This document shows, piece by piece, positions 19,130-22,678 of a stretch of 64,000 nt of DNA. A program made the translations under genes and the position numbers. Source of the DNA: a virus (Duplodnaviria > Heunggongvirae > Uroviricota > Caudoviricetes); IMG/VR virus record IMGVR_UViG_2565956719_000002. One strand, 5' to 3'. The stretch's first letter is position 1; every line of letters begins with the position of its first letter. Below the pieces are notes generated by a model that did not search any database, was not told the origin of the DNA, and saw nothing but the letters and a program-made list of their open reading frames with translations.

Positions 19130-19831
19130 TTATTCTGATTCTCGCTCAAAAAATGAGCTGATAAGGGGAAGCCAATCCTCTGACACTTCGCGAGGTCGCG
19201 GTTTGCCGTGGAAAAAGATTATTCGGCAGTCTTTTGGTAATGCCCCATTCCCCCTGGAGTAACGCGCGCTCGCATATTTTGAACCAGGTTCCACAACATC
19301 GGCCTTGTAACTTACAAACCATCCTGGATACAGATCCTGAAATGCTGGTGTATCATCGCCCATAACCTTTCGTAAGAACCCCTGGTCACCCCAGCACTCA
19401 GTAGTGACACAACGAGAAATCCAACCTTCCGGATCTTGCCAGAATGAACTCCAGATATGCGCTTTAACACTATTTGGTATCCACAGGGCACCGCTGCCAC
19501 GATATTGTGGATGGTAAAAATCCCTAAGCATGGTGAAGCTGGTTGGTGGATGCTCTAGGATTGGGCGTATATCACCGGCAATAACCGTGTCCAAATCCAG
19601 ATAGAACAGATCATCGGTTATATCCGGTCGGAACAACTCGATTTTCGCCCACCAGCCACGGCACTTTTGCCACTGGTTGATCAATGGGACAACTTTGACG
19701 CCAGGTACATGTAAACGCTTCAGGTCTGTCAGGCAAATAATTTCATAGCCTTTTGGCAGTTGATTAACCAGCCACTGCACATCGGAAGCGTTATAGTCAC
19801 CACCAGAGCGAAAAACTAAAGCAATCTTCAT
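19130..19831 (-). CDS. putative glycosyltransferase-like protein (DxD motif)
   Basis: [11 protein letters not shown] DxD-type motif; assignment tentative. Confidence 0.4.
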
Positions 19832-20520
19832 GCTGCACCATCACCTTTCACTTTCATCAATGTCAGGTTTCCGCAAAATACGGCACCAGTGTCGATATAC
19901 TGCTGATTCCAGAATGTCTTCGGGCTTTTCACCGGAGTGTGGCCAAAGATAAAACGATCTGCGCCCGAAATTTCGCCACCAATATCATCCATCGAATCAC
20001 TGATACGCTCGCGCGCCCAGACAACGTTGAAAAGCGGTACCTCCTTACCGAATTGGTATTCATTATCCGGATAGTCGGCATGGGCTATAACGATAGTTTC
20101 TTGCCCGGTGTTCAACTCAATGATATAGGGCAGACGCTTTACCAGCTCCACCAGCGCCCAGGCTAATATTTCCTGATCAGTGTCCAGCATGAAGAACCAT
20201 TGTCCGCCATTCATTAGCCAGTTATTCACGTTGCCATCTGGACTTAACGCATCAATCATCAGCCGCTCATGGTTCCCCATCACTGCCCTGAACCAGGGCA
20301 TCTGCAATAGTTCCAGACATTCGACATTTTCAGTACCGCGATCGATAAGGTCGCCGACCGATATCAGTAAATCCTGCGCCGGGTCAAAATCCACACGATG
20401 GAGTTCGGACATCAGTCTGGTGTAGCAACCATGCAGATCACCAACAACCCAGACATTCCTGTATTTGGTACCGTCGATACGGTGATAAATTGAGGGTGCC
20501 ATCATGTATTCTTCAGCCAT
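19828..20520 (-). CDS. ppp: Ser/Thr protein phosphatase (lambda-PPase-like metallophosphoesterase)
   Basis: GDLHGC ... GDLIDRG ... GNHE motifs. Confidence 0.85.
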
Positions 20521-21128
20521 TCTTTAAGAGTCATCTGCGGAATACCTCCCATTTTCCCGCATGAAACAACGTCAATCCGTTCACGCGCAGACTGGAATAA
20601 CAAAGGCAGGTGACTTAGATTTTTTGGCGTGCCGCCGGAGTGAACGCGTGGTTCTTGTGTAGCGTCAACGCCCACCAGGGCGACATGTTTGAATCCGATA
20701 TGGAAAGCCAGGTTCAGAGCACCATATGCACTATTGCCGCTGGCAATTTCATTCTCATCTTCGCAAAGTCCGAAATGTGCGGACCAGCGCCACGCCCACC
20801 ACTCGGGAGAATTCGTATTTTTTGGCTCCATGCCACGTTCAGCCACACGACGGAAGCACAGAACGCCGTCTCTGACTTCACGTTCTTTAACATCGGGTAG
20901 TGCCATGCAATAACAAACACCACGGCGACGGCGGCCACGACCAACGCGCCGCATATTGTCTGGCGATGGATCAAGTGTGAAAAAATAAGAAGCGCGGTTC
21001 AGCCAGTCGATGGCCCCATTGACCGCTATAATCGGCACTCCGCGCGGCGCAACAAAGTTTGCGGCGCTTGGGCCACTGCCGACGATAATAACGCGATCAC
21101 TGCCTCTAAATTTATTCTTGGGAAACAT
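20502..21128 (-). CDS. MptE/GT42-like (DUF115-type) protein, paralogue 2
   Basis: [10 protein letters not shown]...IIAVNGA...[11 protein letters not shown]...VALVGVD; overlaps upstream paralogue by about 100 nt. Confidence 0.4.
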
Positions 21129-21688
21129 TGAATTGCACTGCTCCTACTTGCATTCAAAATATGTAAATCTGCGTGTTTTTTGCGGGTATCCAGGAACTGC
21201 TGTTGCCATTTTGAAATAGACACCTGCGTTGGATTCCGTAGGGCTTGAGGGTGCGCGCCATGCCAATGAAGGCCGTTTTGCAGAGAACAGTCATAGCCGA
21301 CTAATACCACTACTTCAGCCCCTGATTCAGCAGCCAGACTGATAGCCTGCGCGCCGCTATTTACCCCTTCCGCCGGTCCACAATATCGCCTGTACTCCAA
21401 CGAAAATGATTTCGCCGCCGCCAGGTTGGCTGTCACTTTGCGGAATCTCCCTCCCGGTATGGTGGATCCGTATTGCTTCCACCATGACAAATCACCGGCG
21501 TATAAGGCATAAATGTCATCGAACATCTGCCAGGAATTGTTAACCGCGATGATTGAACAGCCAGTTTTTTCTATAGCAGCACAGTCCTCACGAGTGAGTG
21601 ACGGACCGCTACCGACACAAAAAACAGTCCTAGTCGCCCTGGGTGGTATGTTCATTCTCAGCTGCAAATTCAGCCTCCAGGCGAGCAT
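21026..21688 (-). CDS. MptE/GT42-like (DUF115-type) protein, paralogue 1
   Basis: VFCVGSGPSL...IIAVNNS...NSGAQAISLA...VVLVGYD, resembles Cst-II-type sialyltransferase N-terminus. Confidence 0.4.
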   Translation of the reverse strand: MLAWRLNLQLRMNIPPRATRTVFCVGSGPSLTREDCAAIEKTGCSIIAVNNSWQMFDDIYALYAGDLSWWKQYGSTIPGGRFRKVTANLAAAKSFSLEYRRYCGPAEGVNSGAQAISLAAESGAEVVVLVGYDCSLQNGLHWHGAHPQALRNPTQVSISKWQQQFLDTRKKHADLHILNASRSSAIQCFPRINLEAVIALLSSAVAQAPQTLLRRAECRL

Positions 21689-21818
21689 TCATTTCAGCGA
21701 TTACAGGGTCCACTACAGCATCTGTTTCCTGTTCATTACGCGGCATGACCGATGCCAGCGACTCATAATTAACCTTGGATGACACGATTATTCTCCCGAT
21801 GTTAAAGTGCACTACCAC
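21630..21818 (-). CDS. small hypothetical ORF (true start uncertain)
   Basis: ORF between VRR-NUC and MptE-like genes; weak. Confidence 0.2.
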   Translation of the reverse strand: MVVHFNIGRIIVSSKVNYESLASVMPRNEQETDAVVDPVIAEMNARLEAEFAAENEHTTQGD

Positions 21819-21851
21819 AAAGAGCGTACATGCACTAATTAATTTATTATT

Positions 21852-22430
21852 TTAAGCAGCATACAACCACTTGTCGCCGTTCAATACATGCTCAATAGCC
21901 TCACCCTTTTTAAGGCTTATGTATTCCAGGATGGCGGTTATCGCTTGTTCTGCACCATACGCAAGAACGACGTAGTAACCTTCCTCTCTAAGCCTGCGCA
22001 TCCAGGCGATCTGCTCTTTCGTCGGGGCTTTACCATTTGGTTCTTTAAGCTCAATTCGCATGCCGTGATAAATACCGCATGCTTTATCGAGACTCATGTC
22101 CGGATAACCTTTTTTCTGCCCTTCAGCCTTCATTTTCCCGGCGGTTGCTTTTGAACGTTTCCCTCCGTTAGGCGTTGCATGCAACAGCTCATAGATGTCA
22201 GGGTGCTTGCGTTCGAAGTAATCAAAAATGAAAACCTGCTCGAAGTGCTCGCAATTTCCGTCGCGCAGGTCTGGGTTCTTTGCAAGTGCTGCAAGTGCCT
22301 TCGCATGTGGAGAAACTTCTTTTACCGGCGCAAGCGATAAGAATGGATCCTTTTTGGTTTTTGGCCTGGACCGCCCCTTATTTCGACGCTCACTAAAAGC
22401 CTGAAACTCTTCCTCAGTAAAGCGCAACAT
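21852..22430 (-). CDS. VRR-NUC domain nuclease
   Basis: HATPNGGKRS...KAEGQKKGYPDMSL...GMRIELKEPNGK...VVLAYG. Confidence 0.7.
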   Translation of the reverse strand: MLRFTEEEFQAFSERRNKGRSRPKTKKDPFLSLAPVKEVSPHAKALAALAKNPDLRDGNCEHFEQVFIFDYFERKHPDIYELLHATPNGGKRSKATAGKMKAEGQKKGYPDMSLDKACGIYHGMRIELKEPNGKAPTKEQIAWMRRLREEGYYVVLAYGAEQAITAILEYISLKKGEAIEHVLNGDKWLYAA

Positions 22431-22432
22431 AA

Positions 22433-22678
22433 TCAGTCAAATCCTGCCGGTCGCATGCCATATTTACGCTGTTTTGCGGCCTGCTCTTCCCTGTGCCATT
22501 GCGCACATTCAGCGTCACAATAAATGCCTGATTCAATCGATTCATTGCAGTAACGACACTTCCCTGTAAATACCTGGCTCACGACCTGTGCCTGCTTTCT
22601 GATGTTATCGATGGCCATGTCTTTGAGAGCTTCTAACTGATTCATGCTCAGCTCTGCATCATCAACACGTTCTGCCAA
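22433..22678 (-). CDS. TraR/DksA-type C4 zinc-finger protein
   Basis: CRYCNESI...YCDAEC pattern, 81 aa. Confidence 0.7.
   Translation of the reverse strand: MAERVDDAELSMNQLEALKDMAIDNIRKQAQVVSQVFTGKCRYCNESIESGIYCDAECAQWHREEQAAKQRKYGMRPAGFD

Follow-up and report, generated by a model that had tools for sequence, protein, structure and literature searches.

In actinobacteriophages, glycosyltransferase genes adjoin the capsid and tail genes, with or without methyltransferases, and are dispensable for plaque formation. The virion glycosylation of these phages is mentioned in PMC11256854. Among cellular systems, the Maf glycosyltransferases of flagellin, when produced in E. coli, attach Kdo to Ser/Thr (bioRxiv 10.1101/2020.06.03.131540), and the inner core of E. 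coli K-12 LPS is modified by WaaZ, a KdoIII transferase (TIGR04437/PF27901) with CMP-Kdo as donor. P1 is among the phages most used in bacterial genetics, and about a fifth of its genes, including those considered here, carry placeholder names. The DNA analyzed (the window, 64,000 nucleotides) is a P1/P7-type phage-plasmid at 99% identity, and its gene cluster at 19130-22678 appears to be a patchwork of mutually independent genes, each late or repressed by C1, in which the coherent unit is pmgO-pmgP-pmgQ. We read this trio as a late glycan-building cassette that most likely decorates a phage structural protein, with about an even chance that this is right. The genes and the names of their domains were public before; what is new, and testable, is the concept of the cassette.

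The cluster and its control elements

The seven minus-strand reading frames reported by the first-pass annotation are all present, and the comparison with the P1 ppp region that it proposed identifies them as the P1 pmgL-pmgQ cluster: they match pmgL, pmgM, pmgN, pmgO, pmgP, ppp and pmgQ base for base in position (upf81.0, upf81.2, hdmA, hdmB, hdmC, ppp and hdmD in P7). Over 3801 bases the identity is 99.1% with P1 and 99.2% with SJ46/JL22; the P1 orthologues are 98-100% identical, gene order, operators and promoters are all conserved, and there is no substantial difference between the two clusters. In the P1 genome the cluster lies between the tail/baseplate genes and pmgR/pmgS, not beside the capsid gene. 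The P1 pmg names stand for 'putative morphogenetic function'. The first-pass annotation had named two findings that would tell against a modification system, orthology of all frames to characterized P1 genes with unrelated roles, or unmodified DNA together with the lack of a deletion phenotype. The frames are indeed orthologues, but of genes that are not characterized, and published single-gene deletions of P1 are each viable, with normal plaques and unaltered antirestriction, so that the deletion part of the second holds for these two phenotypes; for pmgN, the published CRISPRi and deletion outcomes conflict.

Upstream of pmgL, the operator-like site noted earlier at 22736 is the annotated C1 repressor operator O26/Op82 (22736-22752, plus strand; assigned from the P1 annotation via the 99% identity), which departs from the C1 consensus at two positions and is common to the divergent gene 26 and pmgL promoters; the window holds 12 such sites, where 0.25 would be expected by chance. 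From the annotated late promoter LPpmgL (22767-22785, minus strand; P1 annotation, L001 6768-6786, offset 15999), the whole set of seven could be transcribed at a late stage of infection. A further C1 operator, Oppp/Op83 (21829-21845, plus strand; P1 annotation, four mismatches to the consensus), occupies the gap between pmgM and pmgN, where it and PpmgN, a predicted promoter, indicate a regulated start inside the cluster. The idea of a single operon thus holds for the co-directional, overlapping arrangement of the genes, but not for a simple single-promoter unit, because this second operator and predicted promoter separate pmgM from pmgN.

At the other end, 26 nt past the pmgQ stop, begins an intrinsic-terminator-like hairpin (19076-19103, minus strand; stem of 11 bp, -13.4 kcal/mol, z = -5.8, with a U-run after it); the hairpin placed earlier at 19079-19106 is therefore real. 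It sits between the members of an inverted C1 operator pair (19063-19128; P1 annotation and consensus matches), Op86b at 19063-19079 (plus) and Op86a at 19112-19128 (minus), which according to the P1 annotation control the downstream pmgR/pmgS.

Neighbors of the cassette

PmgL (22433-22678, minus strand; 81 aa) had been called TraR-like. It is putatively of DksA/TraR type, by PHROG 54 ('DksA-like zinc-finger', E 1.6e-12), with four cysteines spaced as CxxC-x9-CxxxC; it has no match in Pfam, zf-dskA_traR included, or in the PDB. The classical DksA/TraR family has a longer cysteine spacing. PmgM (21852-22430, minus strand) is a VRR-NUC nuclease, as had been proposed, with an N-terminal extension of about 75 residues: its residues 77-180 match the solved VRR-NUC structure 4qbl (phmmer E 3.5e-17), with the G-Y-P-D and I-E-L-K of the PD...(D/E)xK core aligned, and it scores 21.2 bits with Pfam VRR_NUC, marginally under the 23.8 cut-off, and E 5e-27 with PHROG 5702 ('Holliday junction resolvase'). 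It resembles 4qbl, a stand-alone prokaryotic/viral VRR-NUC structure, and this class we take to be Holliday-junction resolvases. PmgL and PmgM co-occur only in P1-like elements. PmgN (21630-21785, minus strand), an acidic protein of 51 aa with a GTG start and a GGGAGA ribosome-binding site, has PHROG 2350 as its sole match and is confined to P1-like elements.

Ppp (19828-20520, minus strand) is a lambda-type Ser/Thr phosphatase and so bears out the PPP-family call: it resembles lambda phosphatase 1g5b over its full length (E 1.5e-94) and matches Metallophos (PF00149; E 9e-16, 59.3 bits for a cut-off of 21.5), as well as NCBIfam PRK11439 (272.5 bits, E 3e-81, under its 326-bit cut-off). It is not present in distant P1-like plasmids, and is missing between PmgP and PmgQ in L126, L133, L135, L136, L144 and all non-P1 loci; ppp is a lineage-specific insertion within the cassette. 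PmgL, PmgM and PmgN never stand beside the trio outside P1-like elements, in 16 non-P1 loci and a further set of loci. These three and Ppp are neighbors of the cassette, not components of it.

This distribution bears directly on the first-pass proposal of a modification system, in the form in which all seven genes act together to glycosylate or pyrophosphorylate DNA and the nuclease cuts what is left unmodified. Phage DNA glycosylation by GT-A enzymes is known (bioRxiv 10.1101/2023.12.21.572611), and the cluster does include a nuclease gene, placed two genes ahead of the transferases. Against this, neither PmgM nor PmgL is ever found with the trio beyond P1-like plasmids, PmgM matches a stand-alone enzyme, the cassette is found in late and head regions rather than replication regions, and the published deletions leave antirestriction as it was. 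In more than 30 loci, the 7-9 kb around the cassette contain no hydroxymethylase, TET/5mYOX, 5mC methyltransferase with dioxygenase, DNA methyltransferase or nucleotide kinase. P1 DNA is moreover cut by ordinary restriction enzymes, and its protection needs the Dar proteins. The reading of a DNA modification with a nuclease aimed at unmodified DNA is thus close to refuted, and the notion of one seven-gene system is not upheld, since pmgO, pmgP and pmgQ are the only members that recur jointly, in fusions and as a mobile group, in phages that are not related.

Fold and motifs of PmgO, PmgP and PmgQ

PmgO (21026-21688, minus strand; 220 aa) and PmgP (20502-21128, minus strand; 208 aa) are minimal enzymes of the Maf/GT42/MptE-like fold, as the first-pass annotation had anticipated in comparing them to MptE and sialyltransferases. 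Both have the common fold of the MptE-like/DUF115 superfamily and its motifs G-x-G-P-S, (V/C)N, SG and G-x-D, and their paralogy, suspected from the common motif pattern, is significant between family profiles (hhalign 98%, E 2.8e-13) where BLASTP gives only E 0.003. They fall under the 34.6-bit threshold of PF01973 (PmgO 23.4 bits, PmgP 21.0 bits); certain homologues and fused proteins score above it (P0051 44.6 bits, P0258 44.1 bits). PmgP is the most conserved component, with homologues in 558 clusters at E<=0.001 (50%-identity library); P20, NG37-38, D53, GNS131-133, G153/D155 and H173 are invariant and G19 and S21 nearly so. The invariant D66/D133 of PmgO and D53/D155 of PmgP are candidate counterparts of the catalytic acidic residues E324/D415 of 5mu5. 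Both proteins are basic (pI 9.3 and 9.7), and neither they nor PmgQ have transmembrane segments.

PmgQ (19130-19831, minus strand) is predicted to be a retaining glycosyltransferase. Its AF2 model (pLDDT 94.3) has a GT-A Rossmann-like fold; among the best 50 Foldseek matches listed, nearly all are GT8, with the catalytic domain of UGGT, whose GT-A fold is related, also among them, and the best is the Skp1 alpha-galactosyltransferase 6mw5 (E 9e-9, TM about 0.58), which the PmgQ profile also finds in the PDB (E 6.4e-7). In 28 homologues D79-L-D81, G148-D149, S174/K176, H208-G209, P211 and P213 are invariant and Q150 nearly so, which substantiates the DxD glycosyltransferase call; the DxD, GDQ and C-terminal His motifs align with those of Skp1 GalT and glycogenin. 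PmgQ finds no Pfam family at E<=1, including PF01501, with which E. coli WaaO scores 259.7 bits. By its modeled fold and its motifs it is thus GT8-like, outside the curated sequence family.

The folds of PmgO and PmgP and the GT-A enzyme beside them support the suggestion that the cluster encodes a sugar-transfer pathway. A second reading takes PmgO and PmgP not as glycosyltransferases but as ATP-dependent pyrophosphokinases of the MptE/thiamine-pyrophosphokinase type that, with PmgQ (and Ppp in P1), would synthesize or break down a metabolite carrying phosphate or sugar, such as a signaling or defense-related nucleotide. We consider this second reading very improbable.

Genomic contexts of the trio

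Outside P1-like plasmids, PmgO, PmgP and PmgQ are the sole group that travels together, and they do so in nearly all loci with sufficient sequence, on contigs of Gamma-, Alpha- and Betaproteobacteria, Bacteroidota and Gemmatimonadota; all identified hosts are diderm. Fusions join PmgO to PmgP (P0051), PmgP to PmgQ in either order (P0220, P0292, P0309), PmgQ and PmgP to a methyltransferase (P0271) and a methyltransferase to PmgP (P0311); a TylF-type methyltransferase fused to PmgQ also occurs. Elsewhere, GT2-like, Nucleotid_trans-like, GT1/GT4 and SAM methyltransferase genes are inserted in the cassette. These additions speak for the building of a glycan.

In 11 loci (L006, L008, L113, L120, L121, L124, L129, L132, L134, L137, L138) the cassette lies directly 3' of the major capsid gene or amid head-tail adaptor and head-closure genes, so that the glycosyltransferase genes are embedded in the structural (late) operon; in others (L003, L107-L109, L123, L128, L130) it lies between the lysis genes and terS. 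In the chromosomes of Pseudescherichia and its relatives, genes of the trio alternate with those for an inverse-autotransporter invasin and further Big_1 proteins, and in a Serratia chromosome a PmgO-like gene heads two Big_1 genes; this interleaving with adhesin genes in Enterobacteriaceae hints at a protein acceptor. In CcrColossus, a PmgO-like gene is paired with a GT9 heptosyltransferase-like gene.

Donors and acceptor

We infer donor sugars, acceptor and physiological role from these properties. PmgQ, with DxD, GDQ and C-terminal H-G-x-P-R-P, is predicted to use a UDP-hexose, and PmgO and PmgP, as cores of about 200 aa of the Maf/CstII (GT42)/WaaZ/MptE-like type, to be transferases for a CMP-activated 2-keto-3-deoxy (ulosonic) acid. 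To our knowledge, CMP-Kdo is the sole CMP-ulosonate available in E. coli K-12, where it would presumably be this donor; the choice is plausible because Maf puts Kdo on Ser/Thr in E. coli and all identified hosts are diderm. The three enzymes, to judge from their co-occurrence and natural fusions, would act in one pathway, probably in physical association, as soluble cytoplasmic proteins repressed by C1 in the lysogen and produced late in the lytic cycle, and would add a short O-linked glycan to a head or tail protein before or during assembly.

The main rival to decoration of a virion protein, although an unlikely one, is remodeling of the envelope, in which the trio would alter the LPS core, or a different glycolipid of the envelope, through the addition of residues such as Kdo and hexose, and so remove or mask the phage's own receptor, limiting superinfection or the loss of progeny on debris. 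The P1 receptor is the terminal glucose of the LPS core. Kinship points this way: PmgO and PmgP belong to the superfamily of WaaZ, which itself matches PF01973 (E 6.9e-7), the sole NCBIfam match of PmgP is WaaZ_KDO_III (E 0.11), the fused homologue P0051 matches PF27901 WaaZ_KDO_III faintly, the core enzymes WaaO and WaaJ belong to GT8, and the partner in CcrColossus is heptosyltransferase-like. The minimal catalytic cores, the basic character of PmgO and PmgP and the diderm hosts are likewise in keeping with it, and a host-conserved acceptor would account for the spread among phages with unrelated virions. The WaaZ kinship is, however, at superfamily level only (hhalign probability 9.5% for PmgP and 11.4% for PmgO; 11.9 bits for PmgP, E 0.11, where the TIGR04437 equivalog cut-off is 200), and that to WaaO is equally weak (6.6%). 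No homologue was found in a waa, rfb or capsule locus, the contexts being phage late regions or an adhesin island; genes for host conversion are not usually embedded between the capsid gene and those that complete the head; and with late, lysogen-repressed expression, new LPS would replace little of the outer leaflet.

Decoration of a virion protein has its counterweights too. Plaques remain normal when any one of the genes is deleted. Since the phages that carry the cassette have unrelated structural proteins, a conserved host acceptor is favored on this point. PmgO, PmgP and PmgQ are without the extra domains with which Maf binds its acceptor, the cellular enzymes closest to them by family belong to LPS-core synthesis (the WaaZ superfamily, GT8 WaaO/WaaJ and the GT9 partner in CcrColossus), and the P1 cassette is not adjacent to the capsid gene. 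The literature reports no glycan on any P1 protein, and two recent P1 cryo-EM papers are silent on glycans; the published P1 virion proteome, in which glycopeptides were not sought, does not contain PmgO, PmgP or PmgQ.

The most specific form of the proposal, which we regard as rather unlikely in its entirety, is that P1 and several hundred Gram-negative phage lineages add an O-linked glycan of Kdo and hexose to a virion protein through a PmgO/PmgP/PmgQ complex that uses host CMP-Kdo, and that the cassette has been co-opted for invasin-like adhesins in some Enterobacteriaceae. If true, this would be the first glycosylation of proteins with Kdo in nature, as well as the first example from a classical coliphage of a system that glycosylates its virions. 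More generally, separating a coherent, widespread three-enzyme cassette from unrelated neighbors turns a 'putative morphogenetic function' into a question of acceptor and sugars. Were virions the target, phage self-glycosylation would extend from actinobacteriophages to Gram-negative phages, with a bearing on how the immune system recognizes therapeutic phages and the P1-like resistance plasmids present in the gut; were it LPS, a lytic-phase phage would have a new way to edit its own receptor. The cassette could also supply compact enzymes that place Kdo-type sugars on proteins.

Comparison with known systems

With the GT8 enzymes (6mw5, glycogenin, GlyE, LgtC, WaaO/WaaJ) PmgQ shares a GT-A fold and the DxD, GDQ and C-terminal His motifs, but it is only about 15% identical to them, is shorter (233 aa) and has an additional invariant W60-W61-x-K63 and an S-Y-K motif; it is a separate, phage-centered family (PHROG 1962). 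The flagellin nonulosonic-acid glycosyltransferases, represented by Magnetospirillum Maf (5mu5), are about three times longer (632 aa) and carry extra domains, whereas PmgO and PmgP are bare cores that form a paralogous pair with a GT8-like partner and stay under the PF01973 threshold; flagellar genes are absent from all cassette contexts examined. WaaZ shares the MptE-like superfamily with PmgO and PmgP, which, in contrast to it, have no link to an LPS locus.

The closest precedent for the trio would, by analogy, be actinobacteriophage virion glycosylation. The actinobacteriophage enzymes are not known to share families with PmgO, PmgP and PmgQ, and the trio differs further in its diderm hosts and in being known from its genes, with the glycan predicted. 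In both, phage glycosyltransferases, with or without methyltransferases, are encoded in a late structural operon and are dispensable for plaques.

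Layout and regulation of the cluster

Between positions 19000 and 22800 the window shares 99.1% identity with bacteriophage P1 and 99.2% with SJ46 and JL22, which are P1/P7-type phage-plasmids, and seven mechanically listed minus-strand ORFs match the annotated P1 genes exactly once the offset of 15999 (window minus P1 locus L001 coordinates) is applied. In the P1 annotation these are pmgL (22433-22678), pmgM (21852-22430), pmgN (21630-21785), pmgO (21026-21688), pmgP (20502-21128), ppp (19828-20520), and pmgQ (19130-19831); their P7 names, in the same order, are upf81.0, upf81.2, hdmA, hdmB, hdmC, ppp, and hdmD. 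Annotated PmgO begins with ~17 residues (window 21637-21688, the 5' end of the gene) that are unconserved in homologues and modelled with low confidence; the internal Met12 (window 21655) may be the true start, which would shrink the overlap with pmgN.

The genes are co-directional and tightly packed, with overlapping or abutting frames, and to this extent resemble the operon proposed in the first-pass annotation. The 'operator-like site at 22736' below which it was said to start corresponds to O26/Op82, a C1 repressor operator in the annotation, with 2 mismatches to the C1 consensus (12 matches of this kind occur in the window, against 0.25 expected by chance). The hairpin said to end it is likewise present: an 11-bp stem at 19076-19103 (-13.4 kcal/mol, z = -5.8) is followed by a U-run and lies 26 nt past the pmgQ stop, as seen on reading and folding the sequence, the automatic terminator scan having missed it. 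What does not hold is a plain single promoter: the annotated late promoter LPpmgL lies upstream of pmgL, and the 66 nt that separate pmgM from pmgN hold, in the P1 annotation, an extra C1 operator, Oppp/Op83 (21829-21845), together with a predicted promoter; the cluster thus carries an internal regulated promoter.

An inverted operator pair, Op86a/Op86b, stands on both sides of the hairpin and controls the next unit, pmgR-pmgS; it overlaps the predicted pmgR promoter, and 66 bp (window 19063-19128) pack termination of the upstream unit together with repression of the next. Further downstream (window 16970-18828) lie P1 pmgR, pmgS (encoding a 420-aa coiled-coil protein), and pap (a putative acid phosphatase); another C1 operator occupies 16970-16986.

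Relationships of the individual proteins

Remote homology of PmgO, PmgP, and PmgQ is visible through profiles and structure models, not through direct sequence search. Searched directly against PDB chains, the PmgO and PmgQ sequences return nothing significant, nor does the PmgP profile against the same chains; PmgQ has no match in Pfam. The PmgQ profile (30 homologues) matches GT8 structures, led by Skp1 alpha-galactosyltransferase (E 6.4e-7) and followed by GlyE and glycogenin, and the AlphaFold model of PmgQ (pLDDT 94.3) has structural matches almost exclusively among GT8 enzymes; the family keeps the GT8 signatures D79-L-D81, G148-D149, and H208-G209-x-P211-x-P213 without exception, with Q150 and R212 near-invariant. 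The PmgO and PmgP families can be aligned from end to end (hhalign probability 98%, E 2.8e-13, with the fused homologue P0051 left out of the comparison). All three enzymes are soluble, with no 19-residue window of mean hydropathy >1.4. WaaZ, prompted by a faint Pfam match, was rejected as a specific relative of PmgO/PmgP at the family level, the superfamily relation alone standing, and WaaO was rejected as a specific relative of PmgQ.

Ppp is closely related to lambda Ser/Thr phosphatase (PDB 1g5b, E 1.5e-94) and also matches Metallophos. Residues 77-180 of PmgM are VRR-NUC, with a Pfam score marginally under threshold and a match to the solved stand-alone VRR-NUC 4qbl (E 3.5e-17) that aligns the G-Y-P-D and I-E-L-K motifs; this stand-alone class consists of junction resolvases. 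PmgL belongs to a PHROG DksA-like zinc-finger family (E 1.6e-12) and has no match in Pfam or among PDB chains, and PmgN is an acidic protein of 51 aa whose relatives, by PHROG, are confined to P1-like elements. The domain guesses made from the sequence at first pass (the PmgO/PmgP paralogy, the DxD glycosyltransferase-like nature of PmgQ, and the Ppp and PmgM assignments) were thus all essentially right.

pmgO, pmgP, and pmgQ form the functional unit

The distribution of the trio was followed by tblastn and profile searches and by a viral-contig scan seeded with a divergent first sequence. Homologues of PmgO, PmgP, and PmgQ occur together in a range of unrelated phages and prophages: in Citrobacter phage phiNP, coliphage IME392, and Xanthomonas jumbo phage Xoo-sp13, in prophages of Ochrobactrum, Pseudomonas, Alloalcanivorax, Hafnia, and Serratia, and in genomes of Zhongshania, Methylophilaceae, Brevundimonas, Sinomicrobium (Bacteroidota), and Longimicrobiales; across the loci, PmgP and PmgQ are found in all and PmgO in most. 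The PmgP family is of modest size: 1.84 billion representatives yield 558 clusters at E<=0.001. Natural fusions join PmgO to PmgP (protein P0051), PmgP to PmgQ (P0220, P0292), PmgQ to PmgP (P0309), PmgQ to PmgP and a methyltransferase (P0271), and a methyltransferase to PmgP (P0311); they predict that PmgO, PmgP, and PmgQ form a physical complex.

The remaining genes do not travel with the trio: outside P1-like plasmids, no PmgL, PmgM, PmgN, or Ppp lies within 7-9 kb of it (16 non-P1 loci and the viral-contig loci). Five distant P1-like phage-plasmids (L126, L133, L135, L136, L144) have the order PmgL-PmgM-PmgO-PmgP-PmgQ, without Ppp between PmgP and PmgQ; ppp is thus a gene that the P1/P7 lineage gained by insertion into its cassette. 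The proposal that all seven genes form one system is therefore not borne out: co-occurrence and fusions make pmgO-pmgP-pmgQ the functional unit and the cluster a mosaic, in which PmgL, PmgM, PmgN, and Ppp are unrelated passengers beside the cassette.

A system that modifies DNA and turns a nuclease on unmodified DNA, as also proposed, becomes barely credible: no base-activating enzyme lies within 7-9 kb of the cassette in more than 30 loci, PmgM does not co-occur with it outside P1-like plasmids and matches the stand-alone 4qbl, and deletion leaves antirestriction unchanged. In-frame deletions have been made for each of pmgL, pmgM, pmgN, pmgO, pmgP, and pmgQ (P1 proteome paper, supplement), and of 29 P1 knockouts all but five (pmgA, pmgB, pmgC, pmgG, pmgR) are normal in plaques and antirestriction. 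CRISPRi knock-downs are neutral across the cluster except for pmgN, called 'essential' at an efficiency of plating of 1.4e-2; this contradicts the viable in-frame deletion, and polarity cannot account for it, since knock-downs of every gene downstream of pmgN are neutral.

Accessory enzymes point to glycan building

Elsewhere the cassette is enlarged. In the lambdoid locus L108 a GT2-like glycosyltransferase and a Nucleotid_trans-like protein lie in or next to it, the latter recurring in L107, L122, L124, L125, and L198; IME392 adds a GT1/GT4 enzyme; SAM-dependent methyltransferases lie in or beside the cassette in six loci (L109, L123, L129, L134, L137, L138); and the Xoo-sp13 PmgQ homologue is fused to a TylF-type O-methyltransferase. 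Phage CcrColossus has, after a PmgO-like gene, genes for an NDP-sugar transferase and a methyltransferase and one resembling GT9 heptosyltransferases. PmgO and PmgP have structural matches to MptE and thiamine-pyrophosphokinase, which would suit a pyrophosphokinase or other small-molecule role, and the fold alone permits either activity; the company of glycosyltransferases and methyltransferases argues that they act as glycosyltransferases, leaving the alternative quite improbable. As judged from its genes, pmgO-pmgP-pmgQ is thus a putative glycan-building cassette.

A second cassette type combines a PmgO-like gene, a ~280-aa protein, and a SAM methyltransferase, in phage D3 (L116 3837-7289) and in a Hafnia prophage and Klebsiella jumbo phage Eowyn (the loci L119 9001-11007 and L118 3998-6083). 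In D3 it corresponds to orf6.5/7, orf12, and orf13, the PmgO-like frame being split into orf6.5 and orf7; neither the ~280-aa partner (orf12 and relatives) nor CcrColossus gp127-gp129 has a Pfam assignment. L198, a jumbo-phage contig of 248 kb, carries a GIY-YIG homing-endonuclease-like gene (9552-10166) between its PmgO-like gene and its PmgP-like gene, on the other strand.

Genomic position and the candidate acceptor

In HK97-type prophages and viral contigs the cassette sits within the head module, directly after the major capsid gene or among head-tail adaptor and head-closure genes (L006 from Ochrobactrum, L008 from Pseudomonas, L113, L120, L121, L124, L129, L132, L134, L137, L138), and the PmgO-like gene of D3 occupies the same position. 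Lambdoid phages (L003, L107, L108, L109, L123, L128, L130) carry the cassette between their lysis genes and the gene for the small terminase, in jumbo phages it adjoins tail or host-specificity genes, and in P1 the C1-controlled cluster, with its late promoter upstream, stands between baseplate/tail genes (26, 25, 7, 24) and pmgR/pmgS. All phage positions are late-expressed regions.

On chromosomes of Pseudescherichia (L112 1241-14359) and related Enterobacteriaceae the genes of the trio are intermixed with those of a 1166-aa inverse-autotransporter invasin/intimin and of four further proteins that carry Big_1 domains, an arrangement repeated in L093-L097, and a Serratia chromosome has a PmgO-like gene at the head of two Big_1 genes (L114 1674-4115). 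Three Big_1 proteins of ~300-330 aa from the chromosomal islands show no evident signal peptide on reading their sequences. The idea that Big_1 adhesin-like proteins are the class of acceptor in P1 was rejected: jackhmmer runs started with seven of them reached no related ORF, either in the window or in 15 phage loci.

During late lytic growth, PmgQ would act as a retaining enzyme that transfers a hexose from a UDP-sugar, and PmgO and PmgP would use a CMP-activated donor to transfer an ulosonic acid. In E. coli K-12, on which P1 can be propagated, CMP-Kdo is the only known donor of this kind. Maf enzymes expressed in E. coli put Kdo on Ser/Thr of their protein substrate (bioRxiv 10.1101/2020.06.03.131540). 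The nearest solved relatives of the cassette enzymes (Maf, Skp1 GalT, GlyE, glycogenin) are without exception enzymes that assemble glycans on proteins; together with the head-module location and the adhesin-island context, this makes a phage structural protein the leading candidate acceptor, with a likelihood falling just short of even.

Remodelling of lipopolysaccharide or envelope is the less likely course, though it has points in its favour: PmgO and PmgP share a superfamily with the KdoIII transferase WaaZ, GT8 and GT9 are families of lipopolysaccharide-core enzymes, PmgO, PmgP, and PmgQ are bare catalytic cores, and a conserved host acceptor would account for spread across phages with unrelated virions. 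However, the relations to WaaZ and WaaO exist at superfamily level only, no homologue was found in any lipopolysaccharide locus, and the timing of the cassette is late. As for the structural-protein acceptor, none of the seven proteins was detected in the P1 virion proteome, and two recent P1 cryo-EM studies make no mention of glycan or unassigned density, flexible glycans being easily missed.

Comparison with known systems

The cluster genes are in the public record, as are names for them at the domain level, most of these in RefSeq; the P1 proteome supplement gives no remote-homology result for pmgL-pmgQ, and literature found by full-text search assigns these genes no function. Apparently undescribed are the standing of pmgO-pmgP-pmgQ as a discrete mobile cassette, tied by fusions and co-occurrence and enlarged elsewhere by glycosyltransferases and methyltransferases; its spread through phages of diderm bacteria, with a preference for head or late regions; and the nature of its P1 neighbours as unrelated passengers. 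The virion-glycosylation cassettes of actinobacteriophages follow a similar logic, which for pmgO-pmgP-pmgQ is read from the genes; they employ other enzyme families.
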